Positions 7,753 through 26,842 of a stretch of 64,000 nt of DNA are shown one piece after another. The stretch spans positions 768,001 through 832,000 of the forward strand of contig CAWKKR010000007.1 in NCBI GenBank assembly GCA_963850305.1. The letters run 5' to 3'. The notes beneath the pieces are model-generated. The model was not told where the DNA came from and searched no databases. It saw only the letters and a list, made by a program, of their open reading frames with translations. How positions within the stretch are numbered: the first letter of the stretch is position 1; each line of letters begins with the position of its first letter. The stretch is from an uncultured delta proteobacterium (GTDB lineage Bacteria > Myxococcota_A > Polyangia > Polyangiales > Polyangiaceae). The position numbers were made by a program, and so were the translations under genes.

Positions 7753-9318
7753 ATGGGCTCGATCAAGGACGATCTCGTCGAAGCGGGTCTCGAGCTCATC
7801 GAAACCCATACGGCATGGGTGCTTCTGAGCGCGGACACGGTCTGGAAGATCAAGAAGCCGGTCGATTACGGGTTCCTCGACTTCACGACGCTGGACCGGC
7901 GCAGGGCGGCGTGCGACGCGGAGACTCGTTTGAACGCACGTCTCTCGCCGCACGTTTACCAAGGTCTCGTGCCGGTCACCCGCGACGCCGGTGGGCGGCA
8001 CCACCTCGGCGGGGCCGGCGACATCGTTGACTGGGCCGTGCGAATGACGCGGCTCCCGGATGCCGTCCGCGCGGACGTGTTGCTCCGGGAAGGGCGGCTG
8101 GGTACGCCCGAGATCGAGCGGCTGGCGGAGCACCTGGCCCGGTTTCACGACGCCCTCGGGCCGTGCGACGCGGCGGGTGGATTCGGCGCACCCGAAGCGA
8201 TCCTTGGGAACGTCCGGGAGAACTTTGCACAGGCCAAGACCGCCATCGGAACGCTGCTGGGCGCCGGAGAAGCCGCGGAGATAGAGCGGCATCAGGTCGA
8301 CTTCGTCGAGCGGCGTCGTCAGCTACTGGACGAGCGCATCCGGCAGGGAAGGGTGCGAGACGGCCATGGAGATCTCCGCCTCGAACACGTTTACTTCGAG
8401 GAGGCGCGCGCGCAGCCGACCATCATCGATTGCATCGAATTCAACGAGCGGTTCCGGTACGCGGACGTGGCCGCGGACATTGCATTCTTGTCGATGGATC
8501 TCGAACGGCTGGGGCGCTCGGATCTCGCAGAAGGGTTTCTCGCAGCGTATGCCCGTGCGTCCGGCGACTACCAGCTGTACGAACTCGTCGATTTCTACGA
8601 AGGATATCGCGCGTACGTGCGCGGCAAGGTCTCCGCGCTGCTCGCGGAGGACCGAGGTGCGGACCTCGACACGCGAGCCGCCGCAGTGAGGGACGCCCGC
8701 TCGTTCTTTCTGCTCTCGCTGCTCGAGGGCAGGGAAGGACTCCTCCGCCCTGCCGCCGTCGCCGTCGGGGGCGTCATCGCTTCGGGAAAGAGCACGATCG
8801 CGGAACACATCGGCGCGATGATGAACGCGCCGATCGTCGACACCGACCGCGCGCGCAAGGCGCTCGCGGGCGTGGAAGCGAAGACGCCACTTCGCGACGA
8901 TCCGTGGTCCGGCTCGTACACGCCTGCCTTTACCGAGCGCGTTTACGCGGAGGTCTTCCGTCGCGCCGGCCACGTGCTCTCCTCGGGCCGCGCGGTCGTG
9001 ATCGACGCGAGCTTTCGCTCGCGGGCGCATCGAGCGGCAGCTCAGGCGCTCGCCCGCGAGCGCGGCGTGTCCTTTTATTTCGTGGAGTGCCGGGCCCATG
9101 CCGACGAGTACGGGCGAAGGCTGGAACGGCGAGCGCGCTCGGCGAGTGTCAGCGACGGCCGAGCGGAGATCTTCGACGAGTTCGCGGCGCACTTCGAGCC
9201 CGTGACCGAAATTCCGGAGGGTGAACACCTCCTCGTGGACACGTCCTTGCCGCTCCAGGAGAACGTTCGCCGCCTGGCAGACGAGCTTCCAACGTGGCCG
9301 GAAGGGTTCAATGGCTGA
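7753..9318 (+). CDS. Bifunctional aminoglycoside-phosphotransferase-like / AAA_33 P-loop kinase (Rv2004c-like)
   Basis: ETH..WV, KIKKPVDYGFLDF, HGDLRLEHV, IDCIEFNERFR and Walker A GVIASGKST. Confidence 0.9.
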   Translation: MGSIKDDLVEAGLELIETHTAWVLLSADTVWKIKKPVDYGFLDFTTLDRRRAACDAETRLNARLSPHVYQGLVPVTRDAGGRHHLGGAGDIVDWAVRMTRLPDAVRADVLLREGRLGTPEIERLAEHLARFHDALGPCDAAGGFGAPEAILGNVRENFAQAKTAIGTLLGAGEAAEIERHQVDFVERRRQLLDERIRQGRVRDGHGDLRLEHVYFEEARAQPTIIDCIEFNERFRYADVAADIAFLSMDLERLGRSDLAEGFLAAYARASGDYQLYELVDFYEGYRAYVRGKVSALLAEDRGADLDTRAAAVRDARSFFLLSLLEGREGLLRPAAVAVGGVIASGKSTIAEHIGAMMNAPIVDTDRARKALAGVEAKTPLRDDPWSGSYTPAFTERVYAEVFRRAGHVLSSGRAVVIDASFRSRAHRAAAQALARERGVSFYFVECRAHADEYGRRLERRARSASVSDGRAEIFDEFAAHFEPVTEIPEGEHLLVDTSLPLQENVRRLADELPTWPEGFNG

Positions 9319-11216
9319 GCGCACTGGCTGGCTCGCTCCGGCCTTCGCGACGCTGCTCTGTTTCGCCTGCGCTTACGATCCGAGGAACATCCACGTCGCG
9401 CGCACGGAGCCAGAGTGGGACGTGAGCCACGTCGCGCCCGAGAGCTGGCCGCTCTGCGTCTTGATCGGTCCTGGAAGCGCAGTCTCGGGCATCCATGGGA
9501 CCGATCTCGGTTTCACCGTCAAAGACCCGGCACATCCGGACCGATTGGCGGCGCTGTTCGGTGACACCTGGGCGGAGACCCGGAACGGGTGCGGGTACCC
9601 GGTTTCGAGGAGCGACGATCTCGAGGCTTCCCTACCGGTCGAGCGCCCGCCGATGCTCCACGCAGGGGAACCGACCGGCTCGGAGGGTGCCGCATGCGGG
9701 AGCCTGGACGTGCCCCCGATGCAGGCAGGTCCAACGCCGTGGCGTCCCATTCGGCTGTTCGACAGTCCAGCGGCGGGCCGCGACGACACGCCGCTCGACA
9801 CTGGCCCGCTCAGGACTCCGGTGGCGGCGTTCAGCGATGGCAGCCATGTGTTCGCCCTCTACAACCGCGACGAAGCGTCGCAGTGCAAGGTGTCGAGTGA
9901 ATGCCCCGATGGGATGGCGTGCTCCGTCGCGCCGGATTATCGCGGAAGGCGGCTCGGCGAGTGTTCTCACACCAGCGGTTCGGCGGGCGGCGCGGCGCCG
10001 GCGTATTGTCGGGACGTTTCGGACTGCGGTCCCGGTCTGCAATGCAGCCCCACGACTCGGGGGGTGTGCCTGGCGCGGAGGCCGTTTGCTCTGCAGACGC
10101 GACACGGGCTCGTCGAGCCCCCGTGGTACCGGGACGACCCGCGGCTCGGGATGGCCTACGTAATCGACGTCGCGGCTCGTCTCTGGCCCGATCGACCCAG
10201 CGACTATGCCGTCGTGGGGAGATTCGTCACCAATCGCTTCGTGAACGTCGCGGCGCGCACGGTGGCACACTTCGACCCGGAGCATGCCGAGTCGAATGAC
10301 TACGGTCCCGGGTTCCAGACGTTGCTCCTCTGGGGTCGCCCATCCTTCTTCGGCTCGGGTGGCGCCCAGAGCCTCCCGTTTCTCCTCTACCAATCGCTCG
10401 AGGCTTCTCACGGCGATCCGCGCGCGTTGAAATGGGAGCCGCACTTTTTCGCGGGATACGGCGCCACGGGCAAACCGCGCTGGTCCACCCGCGAGCGTGA
10501 CGCGATCCCCGTCTACGGCACTGCGGCGAAGCTTTCGGACCCTGGCTCCAGGATCGAGTGGACCGAGCCGGAGTTCGACTACGTGAATCAGATGTCGGTG
10601 AGCTGGGTCGCCCCCCTGAAGCGATGGGTGATGCTCTACGGGGGTGACGTTCCCGCCTTCATGGTTCGAGATCCGCATACCGGCGTCGTCCCGGAGCCTT
10701 TTTATGCTCAGCCCACGGCCGGGGCGATTCACTTTCGCGTGTCGCCACATCCGTGGGGACGAGCAAGCGGCCGCCAGAGCGAGCGAGACGGCTGGACGTC
10801 GCCGGAGCCGCTCCTGACTCGCGAAGAGGCGGCGCGCTACCTGGCATGCGGCAGGGGAGGACGAAAGGAGCTGCCGGGATGCGTGAAGGACGGCGAAGGC
10901 TCGCGGCTGCCGCCCGCTTTGGCGACCCCGCGTGCTTCCCTCGGAGAGCTCGTCGGGCAGACGTTCACGTGCTTCGCGGGCGACCTCGCGGAGGCAGTGC
11001 AAGCCGACGTGTCCGGCAACCCGATCGGTCGCTTGTACGCCCCGAACGTCATCGAAGCATGGACGGAGAACGTGAGCGACGCCTCGGCGGACGAACTTGC
11101 CGCGGAGATTCTACTGGAACGTGTCGACGTGGAACCCCTATCAGGTCGTGCTCGTCAAATCGCGTCTTCGCGCGCGAGCCGGCGGGGTCGTCACCGATGC
11201 TGCGGCCTCGCGGTGA
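9311..11216 (+). CDS. DUF4185-like exported lipoprotein with Cys-rich insert; one frameshift near 11110
   Basis: Lipobox-like FAC, GTDLG, LFGDT and LYAP motifs; the typical ending YWNVSTWNPYQVVL lies in another frame after ~11110, stop TGA 11214-11216. Confidence 0.65.
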
Positions 11217-11264
11217 GGCCTCGGACTCGTCGAGGGGCTCGCAGAGAATCGATGGGTCGACGGC

Positions 11265-14200
11265 TCAGGGCGATGGCGCGCCGCCTTCCGCGTCCGGAAG
11301 TCCGCGCCCCTTCCAGACCGCGAAGATCGCCGGGTAGACCGTGAGCTCCAGGAGAAACGACGTCACGAGGCCGCCGACCATCGGTGCTGCGATGCGCTTC
11401 ATGACGTCAGCGCCGGTCCCGGTGCTCGAAGAGAACGGGGACGAGGCCGATGATCATCGTCGCGACGGTCATGAGCTTCGGCCGGAGCCGCTTCGCCGCG
11501 CCTTCGACGATGGCCTCCTTCAGGTTGCCTCGCGAGAGGAGCGTTCCGTCGCGCTCGTGGCGGCGGTGCGCGAGCGAGAGATAGAGCAGCATCACGACGC
11601 CGGTCTCGGCATCGAGGCCCGCCAGCGCGATCATGCCGACCCAGACGGCGACGCTCAGGTTGTAGTGCAGCAAATACAGAAGCCAAACGGCTCCGACGAG
11701 CGAGAAGGGCACCGCCAGCATGACGATCATCGTCTCGACAATCGAGGTCGTATTCCAATAGAGCAAGGTGAACACGATGCCCAACGTAAGCGGGATGACC
11801 CACTCCAAGCGCGCCTTCGCCCGCTCGAAGTACTTGAACTGGCCCACCCACGCGAGGCGGGTCCCGGCGGGAAGCTGGACTTCGCGGGCGACGGCTCGCT
11901 TCGCGTCCGAGACGTAGTCGGCGATCGGTCGATCGGTGTCGACGAAGACGAATCCGACGAGCTTTCCGTCTTCGCTCCGGATCATGGGTGGCCCGATCAC
12001 GCTCCGGATCGTCGTCACTTGCGAAAGCGGCACCTGGGCGCCGTCGGGCGTGGAAATGAGCACGCGCCCGAGGAGCTCCGGATCGTCGCGGAACTCGCGC
12101 GCGTAGCGGACGGAGATCGGGTAACGCTCGCGTCCTTCGACCGTCTCGGAGACGTTTTCGCCGCCGACCGCGTGCGCGACGACCGAGTTGACGTCAGCAA
12201 CGGTCAGCCCGTGGCGGGCCGCTTCCACACGGTTCACGTCGAAGTCGACGTAGAAGCCGCCCGTCGACCGCTCCGCGAACGCGCTGCGCGTCCCCGGGCA
12301 TCCGCGATACCGCGTGTTCGACCGCGATCGCGGTCTTCTCGATGGCGCCGAGATCGTCGCCGAAGACCTCGATGCCGAGCGGGCTGCGCACTCCGGTCGC
12401 CAGCATCTCGGTCCGGGTCTGGATGGGCATCCACCACACGTTGGGCATGCCGGGGAAGTGGAGCTTCGCGTCCATCTCCTCGGACGAGCGCGTCCCAGGT
12501 GAGTCCCTCGGCGCCACTGAGAGCGCGGCTTCAGCACCACGGTGATCTCCGCCATGCCGAGCGGCGCAGGATCGGTCGCGGTTTCGGCGCGTCCCTCCTT
12601 GCCGAACACGCTGACGACCTCGGGGAACCTCTTTAGCTCGCGGTCCATCGCCTGCAGGAGCACGGACGCCTCGTTCTCGGACATGCCCGGCGGCGCTGTC
12701 GGCATGTAGAGGATCGACGCCCTCGTTCAGCGGCGGCATGAACTCGCTGCTCGAGGCGAGAGACCGCGGGGACGGTGAGCAACAACGTGAGGCAGCGCCA
12801 CGACGAGCACCTTCCAGCGATGGTCGCACGACGAAGCGCACGACGGGCGCGTAAGCCGCGGCCAGCCATCGATTGAGCGGGTTCCTGGATTCGTCGTGCA
12901 CCTTGCCGCGGATGAGAAGCACGGCGAGCGCCGGCGTGAGCGTGACGGCGAGGATCGCGGCAAAGCCGATCGAGTAGGTCTTCGTGAAGGCGAGCGGCTT
13001 GAAGAGGCGCCCCTCGGTTGCCTCGAGCGTGAACACGGGCAGGAAGGAGACGGTGATGACGAGGAGCGAGAAGAAGATGGACGGCCCGACCTCCTGCATC
13101 GCCGGAGATGATCGCCTCTGCGCGGGGACGTGGACGGCCATCCGCCGTCCCACTCGGCAAGCTTCTTGTGGATGTTCTCGATGATGATGATCGACCCGTC
13201 GACCATCGCCCCGATCGCGACCGCGATGCCCGCCGAGCGACATGATGTTCGCCGTGAGGTGCTGCTGGACCATCGGAATGAAGGCCAGGAGCACGCCGAC
13301 CGGCAGCGTCAGGATCGGGATCGAGCGCGCTCCGGGCGTGCAGCAGGAAGACGAAGATGACGAGGCTGACGACGATCATCTCCTCGACGAGCGTGTGCTG
13401 GAGCGTGTGCACCGAGTCTTCGATCAGGCTCGGACCGGTCGTAGGTCGTCACGACGTGAACGCCGGCCGGCAGGCTCCGCTGAATCTCGGCCGAGCGCGC
13501 CTTCACACGCCTCGATCACGGTCAGCGCGTTTTCGCCGTAGCGCATGATCACGATGCCGCCGGGCGCTTCGCCCTCGCCGTTCAGCTCGGTGAGGCCACG
13601 ACGAATGTCGGGGCCCGATGACTCACCGTCGCGACGTCCTTCACACGGACCGGCGTACCGTCGACGACCTTGATCGGACTCTCCCCGATGTCGGCCGGGT
13701 TCTTCACGTAGCCGCGCCCGCGGATCACCTGCTCGTGGCCCGCGATCTCGATGACGCGGCCCGCCGACCTCCTCGTTCGAGGCACGGACGGCTCGGACGA
13801 CCTCGTCCATCGTGACGCCGTGACCCGAGCAGCTTGTTCGGGTCGACGTTGACCTGGTACTGCTTCACGTATCCGCCGACGCTCGCCACCTCCGCGACGC
13901 CCGGGACGCTCTCCGAGCGCGTAGCGGACGTCCAGTCCTGGATCGAGCGGAGCTCCTGGAGGTCGTGCTTGCCGCTCTCGTCGACGAGGGCGTACTCGAA
14001 GACCCAGCCGACTCCGGTCGCGTCCGGGCCGAGCGTGGGGTTGACTCCTTGCGGCAGCCTGGCGCGGACGGAGTTCAGGTACTCGAGCACGCGGCTACGC
14101 GCCCAGTAGATGTCGGTGCCTTCATCGAAGATGACGTTGACGAACGACATCCCGAACATCGACTCGCCGCGTACGGCCTTTACCCTGGGCGCGGAGATGA

Positions 14201-14456
14201 GCGCCGCGGAGATGGGGTAGGTGACCTGATCCTCCACCAGATCGGGGCTCTGCCCCGTCCAGTCGGTGAAGACGATGACTTGCACATCCGAGAGGTCGGG
14301 GATGGCGTCCAGTGGTGCGCGCCGGAGCGAGACCCAGCCCCACGCCGCCAGCGCTCCCACGAACAGGATCGTGAGGAACGGACGATGCGCACTCGCGGCG
14401 ATGAGGCGCGCGATGAGGCTCGGCTCCCGATCCCCTTTCGAAGCAGGCGCGGTCAC
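11265..14456 (-). CDS. cusA: CusA/CzcA heavy-metal RND permease; multiple frameshifts, probably sequence errors
   Basis: LDAIPDLSDVQVIV, LGPDATGVGWVFEYAL, GRLFKPLAFTKT, MPIQTRTEML, AGLDAETGVVML and RLRPKLMT spread over several frames; GTG start overlaps the cusB stop. Confidence 0.9.
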
Positions 14457-15758
14457 TTCGATCCCATCGGGGAGGCCATGTCGTCCCAGTACTTCGCCGC
14501 CGTGCTGATCCGCGCTTCTGCGGCGATGAGGAAAATGCCGGAGGTAGCGACGATCTCGGCCTGGCCGAAGGCCCGCGAGCACTTCGTACATTCCGTCGGC
14601 TTCCGTACCGACGTGGATCTCCTGCGGCTGGAAGCGCCCCTGTCCGAGATCGACGAACACCAGCCGTCGCGGTCCGGTGTACACGACGGCGGAGGCGGGC
14701 ACTTGCACTCGAGGCTCTGCTTCGGAAGCGAGCTCCACCGTGGCGTACATCCCGGGGCGCAGGTCGAGGTTCTTGTTCGCGAGCTCCATGCGCACGTGTC
14801 CGGTGCGCGTCGTCGCGTCGAGGTACGGATAGACGTACGCGACTTTCGCCCCGTACGATTGTCCGGGAAGGTAATCGAGCGTGACCGTCGCGCTCTGGCC
14901 GACGTGCACGTGGGCAAGATCGCCTTCGTAAACGTCTGCTTCGACCCAGACGTCGCTGAGTCCGGCAATCCTGAAGAGGCGCACGCCGAGGTCGACCGAG
15001 GCTCCCTCGACGACGTTTTTCTCGATCACGAAGCCGCTCGCCGGCGCGGGTATCGTCACGTTCTCGACCGGCGCGTCCCTCTTGGCGATGACGTCAATCT
15101 CCGGGTCGCCGAGCCCGAGCAGGTGCAAGCGCTGCCGGGCCGCGCGCACGAGGAACTCGGCCCCGCCTGGCCCGCCACCGGAATCAGCACCTCCGCGTGT
15201 CGCGAGCAGAAAGTCCTGCTGTGCGTCGTAGAGCTCCGGGCTGTATACCAAAAAGAGCGGCTGCCCCGTGCGCACGCGCTGCCCGGTTTCGGTCACGAAG
15301 AGCTTCGTGATCCACCCCTGTACCCGGAGGTTCACGTCAGTGAGCTTCGATTCGTCGTACGCGATCCTCCCGACCGCGCGAAACGTGCGTCTCATCGGCG
15401 CCTCGACGACCGGACCGGTTCGGACGCCGATGAGCTGACGGCGCGACTCGTCGATCAGGACGACGCCCTTCTCTTCTTGGCTCTTCGTCACGGGGATGAG
15501 ATCCATGCCGCAAATGGGACACTTACCTGGTCCCTTCTGGTTCACCGACGGATGCATGGAGCACGTGTAATGGTCGATGTCGGTCGATACCCGCGTGGCG
15601 GCGTTCGGGGATCCGTCAGCGGGACCCACGGTCGTGCTGGTCCCGGCGAACCACGCGACGAGCGGCCTTTGGAAGACGATCGCCACGGTCCACAGCACGG
15701 CGGCGAATGCGAGGGACGAGAGGCGGCGCCGCGTGGCGGACGTTCGAGTCGTGTTCAC
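14453..15758 (-). CDS. cusB: CusB-type RND periplasmic adaptor with heavy-metal-binding domain; frameshift near 14570
   Basis: YTCSMHP...PGKCPICGMDL, GWITKL, YSPEL and LRPGMY motifs; C-terminus IVATSGIFLIAAEARI in a shifted frame. Confidence 0.88.
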
Positions 15759-17149
15759 CGGTCGTTCTCCCTTCCGTCGACTCCCGGCACGCGACCGAGC
15801 GCGCGATCCAGCTCCGCGTGGCGCCGGTCGCAGTCGGCGCGCGCCATCTGGTAGTCGAGTTCGGTGGTTCGAAGGTTCCTCTCGGCGTCGATCAGCACGG
15901 CGAAGGAGTTTCGTGAGGAGACGAAGCCCGCGCGCGCGGCGTCGACCTGGTCTCTCGCAACGGGCAGCAAGCGCCGCTCGAACAGGTCGAGCACCTGCCT
16001 CGACTCTCGAACCCGCTTCAACGTGACGAAGACCTGCGTGCGGGCCGCATCCTCCAGGCGCGCCACGTCGCTTTCGAATCGGCCGCGCAAGGCGGTCGCC
16101 TCCTCGACAGCACCCGTGCGACGGCCCGTCTGAATAGGCAGGTCGAACGCCAGCCCGAGCATCCACCGGTGCTCGGGCATGCTCCACATCGAGTTGTACG
16201 AAGTGGAAACGGTGAAGTCCGGGTAATCCTCGCGCCTCGCGCGAGCGACGCGCGTCCGTTCCGCGAGCGCGCGCTCTCGAGCTGCGGTGATTTCCGGGCG
16301 AGCGGAGACGGCGTCCGCCTGAAGGCGATTCATATCCGCGATGTCTGGAGCGGGCGACAAGGGCAACTCGTTCGGCGGCGGCGGCAGCGGCTCCTCCGGG
16401 ACTCGATGCAGGAGCTCGTTCATCTCGCCGGCAACTACGTCTCGGTCCGAGGCGAGCACCGCTGCGTCGCGCTCCCTGTGCGCGAGCTCCACCTCGGCCT
16501 GGAGTGGGTCCTGCGCAGAAGCGCGTCCGGCCTCGAACTGAGCCGTCGCGCTCGCACGAAACGTGCGCAGGAGCTCGACGTGCTGCGCGTTGATCTCGAG
16601 CGACCGCACGGCGACGAAGTACTGGTCGTAGAGAGTGAGCGCCGTGAGGGCGAGATCACGTCTCACCGATTCGAAATCGCTCTTCGCCGCTTCGGCCTCG
16701 GCGGCCGCGATCGAGGCCTCGAGTGATCTCTTCCCGAACCACGGCAGGCGCTGACTGACGCCCACCTCGTAGCCGAAGGGCGCGCGCGACGATCCGACGG
16801 ACAGCGGCGCGACTCCGACGTCCACGGTCGGATCGTCGAACGGTGCCACTTGCCGGACGCGCGACAGCGCGGCGTGCCATCCCTGGCGCGCTGCCTCAAT
16901 CGACGGATTGCTCGAGAGGACAGCGCGCACGAAGGCCGCGCGACCGAGCACGGAGCCTGCGAGGGCCCGGGCGTCGTCGTCCGACGCCACGCCGGAGCCC
17001 GTTGCCGCCGGTCGGGAGGGAGCGGCGCGCACCGGAGCCGCGTGCTCGTAGTCGGACCGAAGAGATCCGTAATCTGCGCTGCCCGCTGTGGTCGCGCAGC
17101 CGTTCAGGGACAAACAAAGGCCGATGAGACTCGTTCGCGTGCTGAGCAT
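15755..17149 (-). CDS. TolC/CusC-family outer membrane efflux lipoprotein
   Basis: Lipobox LNGC, NPSI.AA, SQRLPWFGKR and YPDF motifs; first structural gene of the cus operon; SD GCGGAGGAG. Confidence 0.9.
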   Translation of the reverse strand: MLSTRTSLIGLCLSLNGCATTAGSADYGSLRSDYEHAAPVRAAPSRPAATGSGVASDDDARALAGSVLGRAAFVRAVLSSNPSIEAARQGWHAALSRVRQVAPFDDPTVDVGVAPLSVGSSRAPFGYEVGVSQRLPWFGKRSLEASIAAAEAEAAKSDFESVRRDLALTALTLYDQYFVAVRSLEINAQHVELLRTFRASATAQFEAGRASAQDPLQAEVELAHRERDAAVLASDRDVVAGEMNELLHRVPEEPLPPPPNELPLSPAPDIADMNRLQADAVSARPEITAARERALAERTRVARARREDYPDFTVSTSYNSMWSMPEHRWMLGLAFDLPIQTGRRTGAVEEATALRGRFESDVARLEDAARTQVFVTLKRVRESRQVLDLFERRLLPVARDQVDAARAGFVSSRNSFAVLIDAERNLRTTELDYQMARADCDRRHAELDRALGRVPGVDGRENDR

Positions 17150-17261
17150 GACTCCTCCGCATCGTCATGAAGGCGGCGTTCGCGCGCGGACGCGAGAACG
17201 CACGGTCCATCGACGGCCGGCGCACCAGTGCGCCCGCTCGTCACGACGAACTTGCGATGGC

Positions 17262-17681
17262 TCAGATCAGCAGTGAACAGTGAGCGACGAACAGCGGAGG
17301 TCCGGCCGGCGGCGGCCCGCGCGCGTGCCCGAAGCGCGCCTGGATTGCGCTCGCCACGGTCGAGGTAAACACGGGCGTCGCGAGCACTGCCACGAGGGCT
17401 GCGACGGGAATAACGGTTGCCGAGAGAGGTGCGCTCGACGCGACGCCGGTGCACGCGGCCTTGAGGCGCACGCAGCAGTCCGGAGCGCGGGCTTCCTCTC
17501 GTCGCTGAACTCCGGTCGAGTCCTCGAGCCGCTCCGTACTGCGGTCGGTCTCGCAACAGGGCGCGTCCATCACGCGGCCCGTCATCCGGCAGAAGTAGTG
17601 AAAGCGGCCGAACGCGATGCCAGGCAGGATCAGCGCGAGACCGACCAGAAGGGCGACGAGTCGACGCTGAATGGAGATCAT
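17262..17681 (-). CDS. Cys-rich secreted leader protein (HYxC...CC...CC...RGPP), putative metal-responsive ribosome-arrest uORF
   Basis: Signal peptide, HYFC, two CC pairs, C-terminal HARGPPPAGPPLFVAHCSLLI; directly upstream of the TolC gene. Confidence 0.75.
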   Translation of the reverse strand: MISIQRRLVALLVGLALILPGIAFGRFHYFCRMTGRVMDAPCCETDRSTERLEDSTGVQRREEARAPDCCVRLKAACTGVASSAPLSATVIPVAALVAVLATPVFTSTVASAIQARFGHARGPPPAGPPLFVAHCSLLI

Positions 17682-18022
17682 CGAAAACCGGGCAGCATGT
17701 TAGCCGGAAACTCGGTGCCCCGCCACGTGGCCCCGGGTCGCGCCACCGAACGGCTTCCGCTGGTGCAGGCTTCTTCGGGCCAAAGTTCTGGCCAAACCCG
17801 GGGCGTTGCGGGCGCTGTGCCAGCGTCAGAGCCGAGACGGCCCCGCGAGCCCCCGACCGATCACGAAAAGCGAGTAGGGTGGAACCGAACTCGCTCGAAT
17901 CGGCCTCGTTTGATGCACGCATTGCCTGGGGCGTAAGCGCTGCGCGCGAGAGCAGGTTACGGCTGCCCGATTTTCTTCTAGCTTGTTCGCCGGAGCACAT
18001 CTTGCACTCGGCCGGCTTCAGG

Positions 18023-19039
18023 ATGAATGGTTCGTGTCCGCACGTCTCGCTCACGGGTTTGCTGTTGTCGTCGGCGCTCGGTTGCTCGCGAGGCGCCCCG
18101 CTCCCGTACGCGGGCTTCACCGACGCCCCGGTGGCCGCCGTGGCGTCCCTGGTCGCGGGCCAGGTCGATTCGATGCCCGTCCGCGAAGGTGACGTCGTCA
18201 AGAGGGGCGACCTTCTCGCGCAGCTCGACGCGCGGGAACGGCAGGCGGCGGTGGCACAGGCCGAGGCGAATCTCGCGCAGGCCAAGGAGGCGCTCAAGGA
18301 GGCCGAGGCGAATCTGCGGGCGGCCGTCCCCACGGTGAACGGCGCTCGCGCCGACATCGCGCAAGCTCAGGCAACGTTCGACGACAACGAGGACAACTTC
18401 GAGCGGACGCAGCACCTGGTCGACAGCGGTGCGGAGGCGGCCGCCACTTTGATCGCTGCGAGGGCGCGCATGCTGGAGGCGAAGGCTCACATCGAGTCGC
18501 TGACCGCCGCGCGAGCCGCCACAGCGGGTCGCGTCAACGCTTCTGCGGCGGCAGTCGCGGACGCGCATGCCGCGGTGGGGACTGCGCAGGCCACGCTCGA
18601 GGTCGCCAAGGTGCAGCTCGCGGAGGCTCAGGTGCTGAGCCCCTTCGACGGCCTGGTGGTGCAGCGGAACCTGCAGCCCGGAGAGTGGGCAGCGCCGGGG
18701 ACGCCGGTCGTGACGATCGAGGATCTCTCGCAGCTCTGGGTTCGCCTGGACATCGAGGAGAGCAAGCTCGAGGGTCTGCACCTCCAGCAGCCCGCGGAGG
18801 TTCACGTGATCGCCGAGCCCGGGAAGAGCTTCCTGGGCCACGTGATCGAGATCGGCGCCGAGGGTGATTTTGCGGTCAACCGGGACGTGAAGCGGGGCCG
18901 CCCCGATCTCCGGACGTTTCTCGTCCGCGTGGGGATCGAGGATCCCTCGCGGTCGCTCAGGCCGGGGATGACCGCGGAGGTCTCGATCCCTTCGCTCGCC
19001 GCGCCTTCGCGGACGGGCGAGAACCGCGCCGAGCGCTGA
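18023..19039 (+). CDS. HlyD-family periplasmic adaptor subunit
   Basis: VREGDVVKRGDLLAQLD, helical hairpin, SPFDG.V and LRPGM; lipobox-like ALGC after ATG 18023. Confidence 0.9.
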   Translation: MNGSCPHVSLTGLLLSSALGCSRGAPLPYAGFTDAPVAAVASLVAGQVDSMPVREGDVVKRGDLLAQLDARERQAAVAQAEANLAQAKEALKEAEANLRAAVPTVNGARADIAQAQATFDDNEDNFERTQHLVDSGAEAAATLIAARARMLEAKAHIESLTAARAATAGRVNASAAAVADAHAAVGTAQATLEVAKVQLAEAQVLSPFDGLVVQRNLQPGEWAAPGTPVVTIEDLSQLWVRLDIEESKLEGLHLQQPAEVHVIAEPGKSFLGHVIEIGAEGDFAVNRDVKRGRPDLRTFLVRVGIEDPSRSLRPGMTAEVSIPSLAAPSRTGENRAER

Positions 19040-19051
19040 CGGGCTCTTCCG

Positions 19052-20050
19052 ATGAACCCCGAGAACGCGATCGAGCTGCACAAGATCGTGAAGCGCTTCG
19101 GCGACTTCACCGCGGTGGACGGAGTCGACCTCGAAGTGCGCCACGGCGAGCTGTTCGGGATGCTCGGGCCCAATGGCGCCGGAAAGACGACGCTCGTGCG
19201 CATGCTCACCGGGATCGTGCCGGTCACGTCGGGCGAGGCGAGCGTCGCGGGCATCGACGTGCGGCGCGACCCGGGCGGCGTGCGGCAGGCGATCGGAGTC
19301 GTCCCGCAGGCCCTGACCTCCGACACCGATCTCTCCGGGTTCGAGAATCTCGACATCTACGCGCGCTTCTTCGACATGTCGCGCGACGAGCGCAAGCCCC
19401 GGATCGAGGAGCTTCTCCACAAGGTGGGACTCTGGGATCGCCGAAAATCGCTCGTCAGGACGTACTCCGGCGGAATGCGCCGCCGGCTCGAGATCGCGCG
19501 CGGGCTCATCCACAAACCGAAGGTGCTGTTCCTCGATGAACCGACGATCGGCCTCGACCCGCAGAGCCGGCACGTCATCTGGGACCTCCTGCTCGATCTG
19601 CGAAAAGGGTCCGAGCTGACCGTCTCGCTCACGACCCATTATCTGGACGAAGCCGAGGCGCTCTGCGACCGCGTGGCCATCATCGATCAGGGGAAGATTG
19701 TGGCGCTCGGCACGCCCCAGGACCTGAAGTCGGGCGTACCCGGCAGCGACACCGTGGAGCTCTCGCTCAGGGCCCCGCCGACGGACGCGCAGCTGGCCGA
19801 GATCCAGACGCTCGCGACTGTTCGCAACGTCGAGAGGACGTCCGACGGCCTGCGCGTGCGGGCGGACGGCGGCGCGGCGCTCTTGCCGAAGGTCATCGAG
19901 ACCCTCCGCGAGGACGGGCTCGAGGTCACGGCCGCCAGCCTGCAGCGCATCAGCCTCGAGGACGTCTTCATCCACTTCACGGGCCGATCGCTGCGCGAAG
20001 AGAGCGCGCCCAAGGGTCAGGCCTTCATTCCGCCGAGGAGGTTCACGTGA
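19052..20050 (+). CDS. ABC transporter ATP-binding protein (DrrA-like)
   Basis: GPNGAGKTT, YSGGMRRR, FLDEPTIGLDP and TTHY motifs. Confidence 0.95.
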   Translation: MNPENAIELHKIVKRFGDFTAVDGVDLEVRHGELFGMLGPNGAGKTTLVRMLTGIVPVTSGEASVAGIDVRRDPGGVRQAIGVVPQALTSDTDLSGFENLDIYARFFDMSRDERKPRIEELLHKVGLWDRRKSLVRTYSGGMRRRLEIARGLIHKPKVLFLDEPTIGLDPQSRHVIWDLLLDLRKGSELTVSLTTHYLDEAEALCDRVAIIDQGKIVALGTPQDLKSGVPGSDTVELSLRAPPTDAQLAEIQTLATVRNVERTSDGLRVRADGGAALLPKVIETLREDGLEVTAASLQRISLEDVFIHFTGRSLREESAPKGQAFIPPRRFT

Positions 20051-21162
20051 GGCGGATCCTCGCGGTGATGGAGCGGGATCTCTTGCGCATCCTGCGGAAC
20101 CCCGCCGCACTGCTCTCGTCCGTCGTGCTCCCGGTCGTCTATCTGTTGATCCTCGGCAACTCGCTCAACGGACCGCTGACGGGGCTCTCCCTGGGCGTGG
20201 TCAGCGAGGACCAGGGACCGCAGGCGAGGGCGCTCCTCGGCGCATTGCAGGCCATCGAACACGGCCCCGCCACCGTGTCGCTCGACCTGCTCGACAACCC
20301 GCAGGAGGGCTTTCGCATGCTGCACGACGGGCAGATATCGGGGTTACTCGTCGTCCCGTCGACCTTCTCGCGCGATCTCTCGCACGGGGTGGCCGCCCCG
20401 GCGGGCCTCTACGTCGACAACGTGGACGCCGTCGCGGCCGTCGCGATCGAGGGCGCCGTGCAGGCTGCCCTGCCGGCCCTGATTCAGCCGCTCGTCCGCT
20501 TCGAACGGCATCTAGGACAGGCCGAGATCCGACCCCAGGAGATCTATCCGCGGGTCGACTACGACGCGTCCCTCATCCCGGGCGTCGTCGTGATGTCGCT
20601 CTTCATGGGGAGCATGCTGAGCGGCGCCTTCAACCTCATCATGGACCGCTTCATGGGCGTCCACGAAAGCTTCCTCTCGACTCCCCTGCGCAAGCTCGAC
20701 ATCAACCTCGGGATCCTCCTGTCGGGAAGCCTCGTGACGTTCGTCTCGAGCAGCCTAGTGCTCGGTATCGGGTTCCTCGTGACCGGCGTGCGGGTGCACG
20801 GAGGCGCCGCGGGCTACGCCGCGCTTTTCGGCGTCATGGTGCTGACGGGCCTCGGGCTGCTGGCGATGACGATGATCATCATCGGAAGAGCCGGCCACCC
20901 GCGCATTGCCGGGGTGCTGAACGGCTTCATGAGCGTCATCCTCTTCTTCCCGAGCGGAGCACTTTACCCTCTGGCGAGCTTCCCGGGGTGGCTGCGGGCC
21001 TTCGCCCAGGTCGATCCGGAGACGCACGCCGTGGCCGCGCTGAAGGCGATTCTCTTCCGGGGCGGCGACATCTCCGCCGCGGGCCGGCACGTCGCGTTCC
21101 TCGCCGCCTTCACGGCCGCGATGCTCCTCCTGTCCACGCTGACGATGAAGCGGACGCTGTGA
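20047..21162 (+). CDS. ABC-2 type transporter permease
   Basis: N-terminal TM, large extracytoplasmic loop, C-terminal TM bundle, SGALYPL...P.W motif; coupled to the ATPase. Confidence 0.9.
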   Translation: MRRILAVMERDLLRILRNPAALLSSVVLPVVYLLILGNSLNGPLTGLSLGVVSEDQGPQARALLGALQAIEHGPATVSLDLLDNPQEGFRMLHDGQISGLLVVPSTFSRDLSHGVAAPAGLYVDNVDAVAAVAIEGAVQAALPALIQPLVRFERHLGQAEIRPQEIYPRVDYDASLIPGVVVMSLFMGSMLSGAFNLIMDRFMGVHESFLSTPLRKLDINLGILLSGSLVTFVSSSLVLGIGFLVTGVRVHGGAAGYAALFGVMVLTGLGLLAMTMIIIGRAGHPRIAGVLNGFMSVILFFPSGALYPLASFPGWLRAFAQVDPETHAVAALKAILFRGGDISAAGRHVAFLAAFTAAMLLLSTLTMKRTL

Positions 21163-21289
21163 CGAGCGGGTTCTCGTGTTCCGCCGTTTCCGCTTCGATG
21201 AGCTGGAAGCCGTGCGACGTCAGGAAGGCACGGAGAAACCGGCGCATCTGCCGTTCGTCCTCGACCAGGAGAGCGACGTCGTTCGTCAT
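21110..21289 (-). pseudogene. kdpE: Truncated kdpE response regulator (N-terminal receiver fragment only)
   Basis: ATG overlaps the kdpD stop; [37 protein letters not shown] matches a KdpE start, then the frame runs into the antisense of the ABC permease and stops after 59 codons. Confidence 0.8.
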
Positions 21290-23994
21290 TTTGCCGCTTG
21301 CGCCGGTTCCTGGTCGACGGGCAAGGGGGGCGCGCTACCGAGGATTGGCAGGTCGATGCGAAAGGTAGCGCCGCCGTGCGGGCGATTCTCCGCCGAGAGC
21401 GTGCCCCCATGCGCCTCGACGAGCCCCCGGCTGATCGAGAGGCCGAGCCCTACGCCCCCCGCGCCGGCATGCGGGCCCCGATAGAACTTCTCGAAGACGC
21501 GTTCCTCTTCGCCGGGAGGCAGCCCGGGACCTCGGTCCGTCACATCGATGACGACCTTGCCGTCGGCCGCGCGGGCGCGGATCTCGATGCCGCTCGATTT
21601 CGGGGTGTACTTGGCGATGTTGTCGAGCAAGTTCACGAACACCTGCTCGAACAGAATCGGGTCCACCGATAGGAGCGGCAGGTCGTCTGGAACGTCGGTC
21701 ACGACCGGGCGATCACCGAGCCTCGGCTCGAGCCGTGAAAGGGCGGAGACGAGGATCTCTTCGAGCGGTATCCAATCCCGCTTGAGCCGGAGGCCGCCGG
21801 ATTCGAGACGCGTCATGTCGAGCAGGTTCGAGACCAGCCGCTCGAGCCGCTCCGCCTCTTCGCAGATGGTTTGGAGGAGCTCGATGCGCTGGCTCTCCGC
21901 GATGTGAACAGAAGTGTCCAGCAATGTCGTGGCCGCCCCGGTGATCCCGGCGAGCGGCGTCCGGAGATCGTGCGAGACAGTGCTGAGGAGCGTGCTTCGC
22001 ATCTCTTCGGTGCGTGCTCGAAGCGCGGCGCTCTCTGCGTCCTGCGCCAGGCGCGCCCGCTCGAGCGCCATGCCGCCCTGGCGCGCGTAGATGTCGAGGA
22101 AATGCCGATCCTCGGAGATCGGGCCTTCGGCTCGGCTCGGGCCGAGCGACAGCACACCGAACACGGTCGAGGCCACTCGAAGCGGCACGCAAAGCGTCTT
22201 CGACCCAGGCAGCGTCTCCGTCCCGAGCCCGGCGAGTCTTCCGTGTTCGAGGACCCAGCGAGCGACCGCTTTTTCCGGCGCGTCCGTCGCGACCTCTCCG
22301 AGCTTGGCTGCAAGCTCCGGCGCCCCTGTGGCATCGGGAAGAAACACCGCGACCGGGCGCTGGAAGACCTGAGCGGCCTGGCCTCCGAGCGCAGCGGCGA
22401 CCTGCTTGGCGTCGAGCGCCGCTCCGAGCTCGCGAGACAGGGCGTACAGCGCGGCCGCTTGTTCCTCTCGAGCGCGAGCTTGCCGCTCTTGGCGACGAAG
22501 CCGGAGGGTGAGACCGCTGATGAGCACACCCGTGACGAACATCATCACGAACGTCAAGGTGTTCCGTACGTCGGTGACGGCGAAGGTGAAGAACGGCGGA
22601 ATGAAGAAGAAGTCGTACGAGGCGACGGAAAGCACCGCGGCGACCATCGACGGGCCGCGCCCGAAGCGGGTCGCGACGATCATGATGACCATCAGGTACA
22701 GCATCACGATGTCGGGCAGCGCGAAGACGGCGCGCGCGATTTCCGAAACGAGTGTCGCGAGCGCGACGAGCCCGACCGCGTAGCCGTACGCCGCCCCGAC
22801 GGGGCCGCCTTCTTCGGTCCGCGCGGCCCTGCGCTCCGGTTCCGGCCCTCTACTGGCGTCGCCCGAAATGACGTGAACGTCGATATCGCCGCTTCCGCGA
22901 ACGACCTCGCCGAGGAGCGAGCCGCGCACGAGGTCGCGAAGGTGCGAGTGCGTCGGCTTCCCGATGACGATGCGAGTGACGTTGTGCTTGCGCGCGTAAT
23001 CGAGGAGGGCCTCGCTGATCTTCGCACCGATCAAGTTGGCGATCTCTGCGCCCAGGGACTCCGCGAGGCGGAGGTGCGCCTCCAGGCGCGCGCGGTCGGC
23101 CGAGGACATCGGCGCGGCGGCCGCGGGTTCGACATAGGCGGCGACCCAGGGTGCTCGGAGCCCTGCGGCCATGCGCGCCGCCGCTCGGACGAGGCGCGCG
23201 GACGCCGGCGCAGGTCCGATGCAGACCAGAATGCGCTCTTGAGTCGGCCACGTCGCGCCGATGCCCTGTTCCTCCCGGTGCGCCAGGACGTCGAGATCGA
23301 CGTGGTCGGCCGCACGCCGCAGAGCGAGCTCGCGGAGGGCGAGCAGGTTGCCCTTGCGGAAGAAGTTTTCGACCGCGCGTGCGGCTTGTTCCGAGAGGTA
23401 CACCTTGCCCTCGCGCAACCGCCCGAGGAGCTCTTCGGGCGGAACGTCGATGAGCTCGATCTCGTCGGCGCGTGTGAGGATCGAGTCGGGCACGGTTTCG
23501 CGAACCCGCACGCTCGTGATCTGCGCGATGACGTCGTTCAGGCTTTCGATGTGCTGGATGTTCAGCGTCGTGTGCACGTCGATGCCCGCGTCGAGCAACT
23601 CGAGCACGTCCTGCCAGCGCTTCGCGTGGCGGGCGCCCTCGGCGTTGGTGTGCGCGAGCTCGTCGACCAGTATGATCTTCGGCTTGCGCGCGAGCGCGGC
23701 ATCGAGGTCGAACTCCTCGAGCTTTCTTCCCCGATACTCGAGGGCCCGCCGCGGCAGGATCTCGAGTCCCAGCACCATCGCGGCGGTGTCGTAGCGACCA
23801 TGCGTCTCCACGACGCCCACCACGACGTCGCCGGCCCGGAATTCCCTCGCCGCCGCGAGCATCGCGAACGTCTTGCCGACGCCGGGTGCATAGCCGAGGT
23901 AGATGCGGAGTCGCGCGCGTCGCTGCCGTTCGTCGTCTTTTTTGATCCGCCGGAGCAGCGCATCCGGATCGGGGCGACCGGCGGGTTCGGTCAC
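21286..23994 (-). CDS. kdpD: K+ sensor histidine kinase KdpD
   Basis: [28 protein letters not shown] domain, 4 [13 protein letters not shown] and GLGLSI. Confidence 0.97.
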
Positions 23995-24033: not shown

Positions 24034-24622
24034 TCAGCGTGCTCTGTCGAGCGCCAGATTCAGCTCGAGCACGTTGACGGCCGGTTCGCCGAGCACGACG
24101 AGCCCGCGCCCGATCGTGCTCGCCTGGACGAGCTCGCGGACTTTGCCCGGATCCATGCCGCGCGCCTTCGCGACGCGGGCGACCTGGTACTCCGCGGCGG
24201 CCGGGGAGATGTGCGGGATCGAGCCCGCTGCCCGAAGCCGTGACGAGGTCGACCGGGACTGGCGCGGTGTTCGTCGGATCGGCGGCGCGGAGCGCCTCGA
24301 TGCGGGCCTTGACGGCGTCCCGAGGCGGGGTTCGGCGGGCCGAGGTTCGACCGGTGCGAGGCGCCCGCGTTGTATGCGGGGCTCGTCGCGGACGAGGCGA
24401 CTCCAGAAGTACTTCGGCTCGTCGAACGGCTGTCCGATGAGCTCGGAGCCGACGTCCTTTCCGTCCTTCGTGATGAGGCTGCCGTTCGCCTGGTGCGGGA
24501 ACACGCGGCTTGAGCGACGCCGGTGACGAGCGAGCGGATAGGCGACGCCGGTGAGGAGCGTCATGAGCGCCGAGAACGGCGAGAGCCGCCCGGAGCTGTC
24601 TTGTCATTGATAGGTCGTTCAT
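24034..24622 (-). CDS. kdpC: K+-transporting ATPase subunit C; frameshifted
   Basis: [42 protein letters not shown] and [11 protein letters not shown] over several frames. Confidence 0.9.
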
Positions 24623-24659
24623 CTGTGCCTCGATGGAGTATGCGTGGGGGTCATTGCCT

Positions 24660-26842
24660 TCAGGTGAGGTGCAGCACGACGAGGACGAGGTCGATGACCT
24701 TGATGCCGACGAACGGCACGATGACGCCGCCGAGGCCGTAGACGAGCAGGTGATCGCGGAGCAGGCGCGATGCGCCGACCGCACGGTACTTGATGCCGCG
24801 GAGCGCGAGCGGGATGAGCGCGATGATGATGAGCGCGTTGAAGATGACCGCGCGAGAGGATCGCGCTCGTGCGGCGTCGCCAGGTGCATGACGTTGAGCG
24901 CGTCGAGCGCCGGGTACGTCGTGGCGAACGCGGCCGGGATGATCGCGAAGTACTTCGCGACGTCGTTGGCGATGCTGAACGTCGTGAGCGCGCCGCGCGT
25001 CATGAGGAGCTGCTTGCCGATCTCGACGACCTCGATGAGCTTGGTCGGGTTCGAGTCGAGGTCGACCATGTTGCCGGCCTCCTTCGCCGCCTGCGTGCCG
25101 GTGTTCATCGCGACGGCGACGTCGGCCTGCGCGAGCGCGGGCGCGTCGTTCGTGCCGTCGCCGGTCATCGCGACGAGGCGGCCGCCCTTCTGGTGATCGC
25201 GGATGAGCGCGAGCTTCGTCTCGGGCGTCGCCTGGGCGAGGAAGTCGTCGACGCCGGCTTCGGCGGCGATGGCGGCGGCCGTCAGCGGGTTGTCGCCCGG
25301 TGATCATCACGGTCTTGATCCCCATCTGCCGGAGCTCGGCGAAGCGCTCCTTGATGCCGCCCTTGACGATGTCCTTGAGCTGAACGACGCCGAGGACCGC
25401 GCGCGCCCTCGGCGACGACGAGCGGCGTGCCGCCCTGCTTCGCGATCGTCGTCGACGCTGGCGCGGACCTGCGGAGGGAACGCGCCGCCCTTGGCGCGCA
25501 CGTAGGCTTCGATGGCGTCGGCCGCGCCCTTGCGGATCTCGCGGCCCGTCGAGGTCGACGCCGCTCATGCGGGTCTGCGCCGTGAAGGGCACGAACGTCG
25601 CGCTCGAGCGCGTGCGACGTCGCGCTCCCGGATGCCGTAGCTCTCCTTCGCGAGCACGACGATGCTGCGCCCTTCGGGCGTCTCGTCGGCGAGCGACGCG
25701 AGCTGCGCGGCGTCGGCGAGCTGCCTCTTCCGTCGACGCCGGGCGCCGGCAGGAACGCCGTCGCCTGCCGGTTGCCGAGCGTGATGGTGCCCGGTCTTGT
25801 CGAGGAGGAGCACGTCGACGTCGCCGGCGGCCTCGACGGCGCGGCCGCACGTCGCGATGACGTTCGCCTGGATCATCCGGTCCATGCCGGCGATGCCGAT
25901 GGCCGAGAGCAGGCCGCCGATCGTCGTCGGGATGAGGCAGACGAGCAGCGCGACGAGCACCGTGATGGTGATGGGCGCGCCCTTGCCGGCCGCCGTCGAC
26001 GCTGAAGAGCGAGTACGGCAGCAGCGTCACCGTCGCGAGGAGGAAGATGATCGTGAGCGCCGCGAGCAGGATGTCGAGCGCGATCTCGTTCGGCGTCTTC
26101 TGGCGCTTCGCGCCCTCGACCATCGCGATCATGCGGTCGAGGAACGTCTCGCCCGGGTTCGCGCGTGATGCGCACGACGAGCCAGTCGGAGAGCACGCGC
26201 GTGCCGCCCGTGACCGCGCTGCGATCGCCGCCGCTCTCGCGGATGACCGGCGCGCTCTCGCCGGTGATGGCGCTCTCGTCGACCGACGCGACGCCTTCGA
26301 CGATCTCGCCGTCGCCCGGGATCGTAATCGCCGGCCTCGACGAGGACGATGTCGCCCTTGCGGAGCTGGCCGAGGCGAGCACGAGCGACGTCGCGCGCGT
26401 CGCGCCTCGGCTCGGCGAGCTTGCTTCGCCTGGATGTCCTTGCGCGCCTTGCGCAGCGCGTCGGCCTGCGCCTTGCCGCGGCCTTCGGCCATCGCCTCGG
26501 CGAAGTTCGCGAAGAGCACCGTGAACCAGAGCCAGAGCCGAGATCGCCGAGGATGAAGCCCGCCGGCGCTTCGCCGTGTCCGCCGAGCGCCTGGATCCGA
26601 AGAGCGCGGTCGTGAGGACGCTGCCGACCTCGACGACGAACATGACGGGGTTTCGGACCTGGTGCCGCGGGTCGAGCTTGCTGGAACGAGTCGACGATGG
26701 CGCGCCGGACGATGGCCGGGTCGAAGAGCGGGCGGGCTTGGCCCTTCGCGCGGTGAGTGCCGTGCTCGATGGGGTCGCGGGACGGCGGGGGGCTGCGTCC
26801 GCGGTCGCGACGCAAGATCTTCGGGGCTCGAGTGGTTGCCAT
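24660..26842 (-). CDS. kdpB: K+-transporting P-type ATPase subunit B; multiple frameshifts
   Basis: [52 protein letters not shown] and [13 protein letters not shown]; start approximate. Confidence 0.93.

Follow-up and report, generated by a model that had tools for sequence, protein, structure and literature searches.

A candidate arrest-peptide leader precedes a myxobacterial CusCBA operon, and its stop region is predicted to hide the ribosome-binding site of the pump genes

On the minus strand of the 64,000-nt stretch of Polyangiaceae DNA analysed here (hereafter, the window), a leader ORF is followed by the genes of an efflux pump in the order leader–TolC–CusB–CusA. The leader (17262–17681; 139 aa in the ORF list), an exported, Cys-rich arrest-peptide candidate of the RAPP type, stops 112 nt ahead of the start of a TolC/CusC-type outer-membrane factor (15755–17149; 464 aa; PF02321, E 1.1e-43; lipoprotein-like N-terminus). 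Downstream lie a CusB-type adaptor with an HMBD domain (14453–15758; PF16576, E 2.7e-74; PF19335), whose frame is broken near the 3′ end, and a CusA-type RND pump (11265–14456) with several frame breaks in the assembly. The top solved-structure match of the pump was CusA (E 1.6e-93, compared with 9e-45 for ZneA) and all three Met metal ligands of E. coli CusA were found, their numbering being read from the structure chain with a presumed offset of seven residues. The locus hence combines a CusA with Met ligands, a CusB and an outer-membrane factor in one operon, the composition that defines CusCBA, albeit with a broken reading frame; the first-pass annotation, made from the DNA letters alone, had rightly placed the leader at the head of such an operon.

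The frame breaks affect cusA, which is spread over several frames (14456–11265), and the 3′ end of cusB, which continues in frame into the cusA start (about 14600–14453); they may be assembly indels or gene decay. Frameshifts in nearby kdp genes suggest indel errors in the assembly, as kdpB/kdpC-like ORFs (24034–26643, minus strand) adjoining an intact KdpD (21286–23994) are likewise fragmented. No RNA sequencing run was listed as containing the sequence; one DNA run with a small share of it, possibly from the source sample, had a contig identical over 17408–17825 and did not settle the breaks in cusA. Of 18 long homologous loci, 13 cover cusA, and in 11 of these 13 relatives the gene is intact and encodes the three Met motifs.

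Divergent from the leader, and with a 200-nt upstream region in common with it, are genes for an HlyD adaptor, a DrrA-like ABC ATPase and an ABC-2 permease (17879–21162, plus strand), while a 707-aa ORF (9221–11344, plus strand) that contains Cys-rich stretches and matches no Pfam family converges on the end of cusA. As annotated before, no metal regulator was found among the neighbours tested (the divergent HlyD/ABC/permease genes, KdpD and an AAA/APH protein; Pfam, three window ORFs). Pfam searches of 30 ORFs upstream of leader homologs in 12 relatives (up to three each) revealed no conserved regulator; these ORFs included one PAS hybrid kinase and two divergent HMBD P-type ATPases, which stand head to head with the leader (L138:3752–5923, L144:3678–5963). 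The highest-scoring response regulator of the genome reached 239 bits against a CusR/CopR cut-off of 279, and control from a distance is conceivable. A strict sigma-70 scan and a terminator scan of the locus gave no match, the leader–TolC spacer being devoid of an intrinsic terminator.

No SD precedes the window leader, and a putative –10 element (TAACAT, 17697–17702, minus strand) lies 15 nt upstream of its ATG. Among 56 ATG-start homologs, 29 carry TGnTA within –32 to –6 (27 of these 14–19 nt upstream; shuffle rate 4.7%) and five an SD-like sequence. Judging from these sequences, the leader mRNA is probably near-leaderless. A six-codon ORF (17698–17678, minus strand), whose terminal TGA overlaps the leader ATG, probably arose by chance, since its start falls within the putative –10 element.

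The leader protein begins with a predicted Sec signal peptide (residues 1–25, 17607–17681, minus strand; RR, LVALLVGLALIL, A-F-G), as judged by hydropathy and not by SignalP. A hydrophobic stretch upstream of Cys31 was present in 127 of 130 homologs, with AxA/AxG commonest at the cleavage site, and an AlphaFold2 model places a helix at residues 2–23. The putative sensor residues (17472–17591, minus strand) are retained almost throughout the 130 homologs: Cys31 in 130, Met33 in 108, and Cys42, Cys43, Cys69 and Cys70 in 129, 130, 130 and 129, respectively. The first-pass annotation had recorded the ORF, its hydrophobic N-terminus and both CC pairs, all of which we recovered, as well as a HYFC motif that does occupy residues 28–31, but whose His28 recurs in just 28 of the 130 homologs. 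RGPP (residues 121–124) is encoded at 17310–17321 (minus strand), again as annotated; by analogy with CruR toeprints, the P-site residue of this candidate arrest motif would be Pro123. RAPP or RGPP was found in 108 of the 130 proteins, which thus resemble RAPP/RGPP leaders in being short exported uORF products with R-(A/G)-P-P close to the C-terminal end. From the second CC to the motif Arg there are 49–52 residues in 103 of 116 homologs, and from the motif to the stop 14–16 residues in 106 of 116; the distance between the CC pairs varies from 15 to 31 residues. Residues 75–119 are poorly conserved, yet fixed in length.

ARGPPPAGPP had been taken for the C-terminus. In fact, ten further residues (LFVAHCSLLI) follow, so that RGPP is succeeded in the window leader by PAGPPLFVAHCSLLI and then UGA. 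This tail (GPPLFxxHCSLLI; 17265–17303, minus strand) is as conserved as the motif itself (C135 in 122 and L138 in 128 of 130 homologs; R121 in 114), and Cys135, one of six conserved Cys, lies past the arrest site. The leader stop is UGA in 117 of 119 loci (77% in the genome), the last codon begins with A in 95 of 119 (19%) and the penultimate Leu codon is YUG in 89 of 108 (34%). This codon bias suggests that the last codons are under RNA constraint, accounting for part of the tail conservation. Over the 119 loci, 74 carry RAPP, RGPP or RAGP, 20 RGSP (of which the main text of PMC12992588 makes no mention) and 11 lack an R-x-x-P motif; loci without RAPP retain the tail. The RGSP loci belong to one genus of the order (L037–L057) and keep both the tail and the stop helix described below, and HPPGPP without Arg occurs in L036, L058, L063 and L077. 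The AlphaFold2 model is of low confidence and mostly extended (pTM 0.38), and Foldseek returned no fold match for it at E ≤ 0.001. These parts, their conservation and fixed spacings, like the position of the pairing discussed below, are read from sequence.

Profile searches detected leader homologs in 104 of 301 Polyangiales genomes and in 43 of 301 genomes of a phylum sample. At E ≤ 0.001 the profile matched 1900 clusters, the best named records being Polyangiaceae and Polyangiales; Pfam and NCBIfam hold no named family for the leader. An OEP gene comes next in 105 of the 119 distinct loci. Other homologs stand directly before a CusB-like gene with no intervening TolC (L104, L117, L119, L126, L127 and L171, the last of which retains a stop-spanning SD helix) or ahead of small exported proteins and not of a pump (L017, L101, L113, L146 and L166–L168). 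A search of the genome for further small secreted Cys/His ORFs with the motif gave two matches, of which the window leader alone was convincing. According to the source data of PMC12992588, RAPP and RGPP are under-represented in the proteomes of Myxococcota (bias 0.47 and 0.29, respectively).

Language-model neighbours of the leader were unnamed Myxococcota clusters and DUF8199 clusters. HYC_CC_PP (NF047658)/DUF8199 (PF26622) has the same motif order as the leader (signal, xYC, CC, CC, PP), but differs in that the His is not conserved in the leader. At 28 bits, NF047658 matched neither the window protein nor any other in the genome, and three of 130 homologs matched weakly (E ≤ 0.1, best 0.00016). 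No Pfam match to DUF8199 was obtained with a copy that may lack the model; the Atlas feature score was 0.96 to a cluster (n = 51) that is 47% DUF8199. No paper in the literature searched names HYC_CC_PP.

The first-pass annotation had noted that the mRNA just past RGPP is complementary to the TolC SD. This helix A exists in the window: CCUCCGC-UGU-UCGUC (5′ arm, 17300–17286) and 17166–17154 form 12 Watson–Crick pairs that include most of the SD. A second, longer helix had been missed. Helix B pairs 17271–17241, an anti-SD comprising the leader's last codons, its stop and the first 21 nt of the spacer, with 17170–17141, which holds the TolC SD (GGAGGAG, 17158–17152), the AUG (17149) and the first codons; it thus spans the leader stop and hides both SD and AUG. 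In two of three folding windows helix B dominates (pair probabilities 0.76–0.98, against 0.01–0.02 for helix A), whereas the third favours helix A (0.62–0.70, against about 0.28). The spacer further holds two predicted inner hairpins (17219–17234 and 17176–17201, minus strand). The first, reported earlier as GCGCAC-UG-GUGCGC, does fold, though with six base pairs closing a 4-nt loop; a hairpin at a place similar to that of the second occurs in a subgroup of 23 loci, with both-side changes in five of seven pairs. The whole leader–TolC region folds no better than its shuffles (z –0.05), so that the signal is the location of pairing and not its energy.

Pairing was compared across two sets of homologous loci. 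Set 1 started from 93 loci with a BLAST match to the window TolC, of which 12 were removed (uncertain start, frameshift, no SD) and 81 kept; set 2 comprised 94 matches minus 41 duplicates, six short loci, three without OEP and five without SD or with odd spacing, leaving 39 loci, kin included and one start probably wrong, with regions defined as in set 1. The main SD partner lay at –15 to +19 of the leader stop in 58 of 81 (set 1) and 27 of 39 loci (set 2), compared with seven of 41 ordinary same-strand gene pairs of the genome, and in the coding tail, where helix A arises, in nine of 81 and five of 39. Stop-region sequences vary by lineage, yet each pairs with its own RBS: among 43 loci below 45% leader identity, stop-region duplexes had –21.2 kcal/mol with the own and –16.0 kcal/mol with other RBSs, a difference reached in 0 of 20000 permutations and again in 0 of 20000 in set 2. 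Conservation of the helix A pairing, which the first-pass annotation had proposed as a check, was not above chance (2015 of 20000 permutations in set 1, 12531 of 20000 in set 2); the controls gave 8885 (upstream coding sequence) and 4642 of 20000 (ordinary gene pairs). Helix A is hence a feature of the window that is not conserved. MAFFT and RNAalifold, applied to 23 aligned loci of one subgroup, recovered an inner hairpin alone and not the long helix. The evidence for conserved stop-region pairing is therefore the alignment-free cognate test. The register of helix B shifts between lineages, and in the four closest same-genus loci (L002–L005) the stop helix is not the dominant SD partner.

To model the effect of ribosome position, RNA under a ribosome (to +15 from the P-site) was removed and the cost of unpairing –16 to +6 of the TolC start computed. 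For 65 loci with a recognised motif, the median opening cost was 14.3 kcal/mol in the free mRNA, 14.8 with the ribosome at the motif and 7.2 with the ribosome at the stop, with similar values at +12 and +18; the corresponding figures were 12.0, 13.5 and 6.7 kcal/mol in set 2 (n = 33) and 14.6, 18.0 and 9.8 kcal/mol in the window. Moving the ribosome from motif to stop lowered the cost by at least 4 kcal/mol in 45 of 65 and 22 of 33 loci, compared with four of 41 controls, while a drop of at least 2 kcal/mol from the free to the motif-bound state was seen in just seven of 65 and one of 33. The cost begins to fall about ten codons before the leader stop and does so over these last ten only. Helix A's anti-SD begins at +16 from the P-site, i.e. 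at the edge of the footprint of a ribosome at RGPP, which leaves the RBS closed because the stop-codon helix holds it. In the same model, the stall does open the RBS of E. coli secM–secA, six codons from the stop (from 8.3 to 4.0), and those of three alphaproteobacterial leaders with PP 4–8 codons from the stop. Equilibrium folding of GC-rich RNA is a crude measure. When upstream re-pairing was allowed, the family costs were 14.6, 15.1 and 10.2 kcal/mol (33 loci), with a drop of at least 4 in 17 of 33; in the window, the cost fell from 15.3 to 13.4, an effect of just 1.9 kcal/mol, since helix A re-forms. A ribosome at Pro128 reduced it to 11.6, from 14.5, in this model. The firm result is thus a negative one, against the first-pass proposal that TolC translation is licensed when a ribosome stalls at RGPP and covers the anti-SD; opening at the leader stop is a prediction, and the ribosome position that would open the RBS a computed one.

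CutF and CruR, named already in the first-pass annotation, are the right comparison, as we too see a conserved, exported, Cys-rich leader of the RAPP type whose mRNA hides the pump SD. In Rhodobacter capsulatus CutF, copper-induced stalling melts an SD stem-loop (PMC9973294; bioRxiv 10.1101/2025.02.05.636593). CutF-like genes most often neighbour OEP/RND genes, with SilD and CusD on the network (Ozturk 2023, PMC9973294); three supplements of that paper do not name myxobacteria. Like CutF, the window leader is small, Sec-exported and Cys-containing, with a Pro-rich C-terminus, an SD-hiding stem-loop and a copper-defence gene downstream. It conforms to the CutF-like search rule in having fewer than 150 aa with an N-terminal signal peptide (139 aa; hydropathy), PP within the last 15 residues (Pro128–Pro129; RGPP lies just outside) and a same-strand metal-homeostasis gene less than 1000 nt downstream (TolC at 112 nt). 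Unlike CutF, with its CxxxC and PPP, it carries CC/CC, YFCxM and RAPP/RGPP, the latter 15 residues before the stop, has no DUF2946 match and is predicted to open on completion instead of on stalling. CutF's mechanism, whereby stalling at the Pro motif melts the stem-loop around the SD, was not reproduced for the leader in our folding model, in which SecM and the short-tail leaders do open.

In Bordetella pertussis CruR (Bp2923, DUF2946), RAPP lies three residues from the end, and copper relieves an arrest, whereupon Rho terminates (PMC9426467); the arrest has been demonstrated (PMC12992588), and the fixed Cys-to-motif spacing matters (PMC9426467). The leader resembles CruR in its long spacer and in the constant number of residues between Cys ligands and RAPP-type motif (45 in CruR, about 50 in the leader; 49–52 in 103 of 116 homologs), and copper-relieved arrest is the step that our proposal below borrows from it. 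It differs in the position of the motif, in the output (an SD helix in place of Rho) and in the regulated gene, CruR turning an importer off where the leader should turn an exporter on. The DUF2946 profile (PF11162) did not match the window protein, matched one of 18 homologs at E 0.93 and gave no hit over the cut-off in the genome; the CXXC of DUF2946 is missing, the conserved Cys of the leader being C31, CC, CC and C135. With SecM, ApdA and ApdP (PMC10987492, PMC12992588) the leader shares a signal peptide and a RAPP-like core, RGPP being the strongest core motif tested, although a motif alone is insufficient for arrest (PMC12992588). Arrest induces secDF, and some peptides arrest at the stop (PMC10987492). 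SecM stalls six codons ahead of the stop and thereby exposes the SD; the leader motif is 16–17 codons away.

RAPP uORFs are enriched over AAPP uORFs before genes for TolC (530 vs. 380), RND adaptors (620 vs. 148) and CusA/CzcA (50 vs. 7) in PMC12992588. Among 30 of its 288 TolC rows, 26 place the motif at most nine residues from the end, and in several the tail is longer and reads LLFCSLLI; one entry of its source data, UCH29784.1, precedes a TolC gene, carries both the motif and the tail of the leader family and passes there without comment. On plasmids, three of seven cus loci have short-tail leaders: CutF-like ORFs precede alphaproteobacterial plasmid cus genes at L231:718–1026, L236:about 2250–2610 (unannotated) and L237:2083–2487. 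A non-homologous leader before Xanthomonas plasmid cus genes (L243:12642–13037) ends in SDPP...RFCSLLI; past the stop, a long hairpin conceals an SD at +73 that lies ahead of the annotated TolC start, and a ribosome at the stop lowers the cost only from about 16 to 12.4. In Xanthomonas copL, RPP lies 3–4 codons from the stop. Evidence for the long-tail pattern beyond Myxococcota is anecdotal.

Since a stall at RGPP cannot reach the SD-hiding lock and completion of the leader can, the simplest wiring is one in which arrest means OFF and release means ON; since the pump is of the CusA type, metal should switch it on. We give an about even chance to this proposal, namely that arrest keeps CusCBA silent and metal-triggered release followed by termination turns it on. 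Here, we infer that arrest takes place at RGPP, what the ligand is, that metal releases the arrest and in which direction the pump is regulated. The leader would be translated from its near-leaderless mRNA and then exported. By default, the ribosome would arrest at RGPP, with the pump SD and AUG still paired around the leader stop and CusCBA OFF, as the lock sits 16–17 codons past the arrest site, beyond reach of the arrested ribosome. The second CC would then be 53 residues from the peptidyl transferase centre, such that the Cys cluster would be just exposed; 53 residues is an estimated match to the length of ribosome tunnel plus translocon. Binding of Cu(I)/Ag(I), or a disulfide change, at Cys31/Cys42–43/Cys69–70 might pull the chain and free the arrest, a step already proposed for CruR, upon which the released ribosome would reach UGA, melt the stop-spanning helix and free the TolC start, the output being translational coupling across about 110 nt. 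In a different arrest system, transient opening by passing ribosomes was the source of basal expression (PMC10987492). The tight CC-to-motif spacing beside a variable CC-to-CC spacing may count in favour, as in CruR, whose spacing is also fixed. Counting against it, the RAPP-type motif is absent or RGSP in some loci, which speaks against uniform arrest; the helix is opened only briefly by a passing ribosome; and CutF, the sole precedent with the sign of an efflux gene, uses copper-induced stalling. The broken cusA in the window, the RNAalifold miss and the lack of a dominant stop helix in L002–L005 also weigh against it.

The main rival, albeit unlikely in our estimate, locates the regulated step elsewhere: the tail PPLFxxHCSLL(I/N/T/S)-UGA could itself be an arrest or slow-termination sequence. 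Metal would then prolong the stay of the ribosome at the stop or the last few codons and hold the SD open, with the sign of CutF, and RGPP would be a timing pause or accessory element. TnaC is an example of a stop-site stall. The stop is the very position that opens the RBS in the model, the tail is conserved like the motif (C135 122, L138 128, R121 114 of 130) and ends in UGA in 117 of 119 loci, loci without RAPP keep it, and the Xanthomonas plasmid cus leader shares CSLLI with SDPP and no Arg; arrest peptides with a stop in the A site exist (PMC10987492). As the motif-to-stop spacing is fixed too, CC spacing cannot distinguish the RGPP site from the stop site. However, RNA constraint on the last codons explains part of the tail conservation, and RGPP, a strong EF-P-resistant arrest core (PMC12992588), would be costly as a mere pause. 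We give little credence to a Rho-dependent scheme modelled on CruR, in which arrest at RGPP would govern transcription and the SD helix, acting as an additional lock, would make pump translation depend on completed translation of the leader. Besides that precedent, the spacer's lack of an intrinsic terminator agrees with it, as does a slight surplus of C over G within the leader's final 90 nt (mean 0.10; >0.1 in 19 of 43), but this surplus may reflect Pro/Ala codons, release followed by termination has the wrong sign for an efflux pump, and a transcript-protecting stall would leave the SD shut.

Even less probable appears the first-pass model, in which metal would stall the ribosome at RGPP, or at the PP that follows, so that the coding anti-SD (17300–17286) is masked and the SD freed. 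The 12-bp complementarity is real in the window and dominant in one of three folding windows, CutF sets a precedent, the SD pairs chiefly with the coding tail in nine of 81 and five of 39 loci, and a ribosome at Pro128 reduces the cost to 11.6 from 14.5 with upstream re-pairing. Yet helix B replaces helix A, cognate pairing is not conserved (2015 and 12531 of 20000) and no opening occurs at the motif with or without upstream re-pairing. Finally, the leader might be released as a periplasmic Cys protein acting in trans, as chaperone or buffer, under constitutive translational coupling without regulated arrest, which we consider improbable. Six conserved Cys, one of them (Cys135) past the arrest site, and the 31 of 119 loci with RGSP or no motif would fit such a role, and coupling by the stop helix requires no arrest; against it speak the AlphaFold2 model, which is weak (pTM 0.38), largely extended and matched by no known fold, the poor conservation yet fixed length of residues 75–119, the retention of RAPP/RGPP in the leader despite depletion in Myxococcota proteomes (bias 0.47 and 0.29), and the cis-only action of CutF and CruR (PMC9426467, PMC9973294).

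The first-pass claim that such a leader is new for an RND operon was too strong, as Ozturk 2023 and Fujiwara 2025 (PMC12992588) already list RAPP- or CutF-like leaders before TolC/RND/CusA genes; these leaders before OEP/RND genes were catalogued there and none was experimentally tried. The leader class is thus in print, and the inverted geometry is the new, testable part. Neither release-activated RAPP regulation nor an experiment on a leader preceding RND pump genes was found in the literature searched, which covered few subscription papers. Tentatively, and with the balance of our judgement somewhat against it, long-tail RAPP/RGPP leaders may form a distinct switch class, in which arrest represses and ligand release activates via termination at a stop that doubles as anti-SD. 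If so, the distance from motif to stop (about 3–6 vs. 12–17 codons) would decide whether arrest represses or activates, and unrelated leaders that end in -FLI/-LLI-stop (Rhodanobacter-type rows of the Fujiwara list, Xanthomonas plasmid cus) would bear the protein imprint of an anti-SD.

Control by RAPP leaders of genes outside protein export is a stated open question in PMC12992588. Should instead the stop be the site of stalling, a ligand-controlled stop-codon stall sensed across the membrane would also be worth knowing. The two copper leaders studied so far disagree, in that copper relieves arrest in CruR and induces it in CutF. With arrest as OFF and release as ON, the leader family would represent a third wiring, in which force-driven release of the CruR kind switches an efflux pump on, and would explain how CusCBA could respond to periplasmic metal without a neighbouring regulator.
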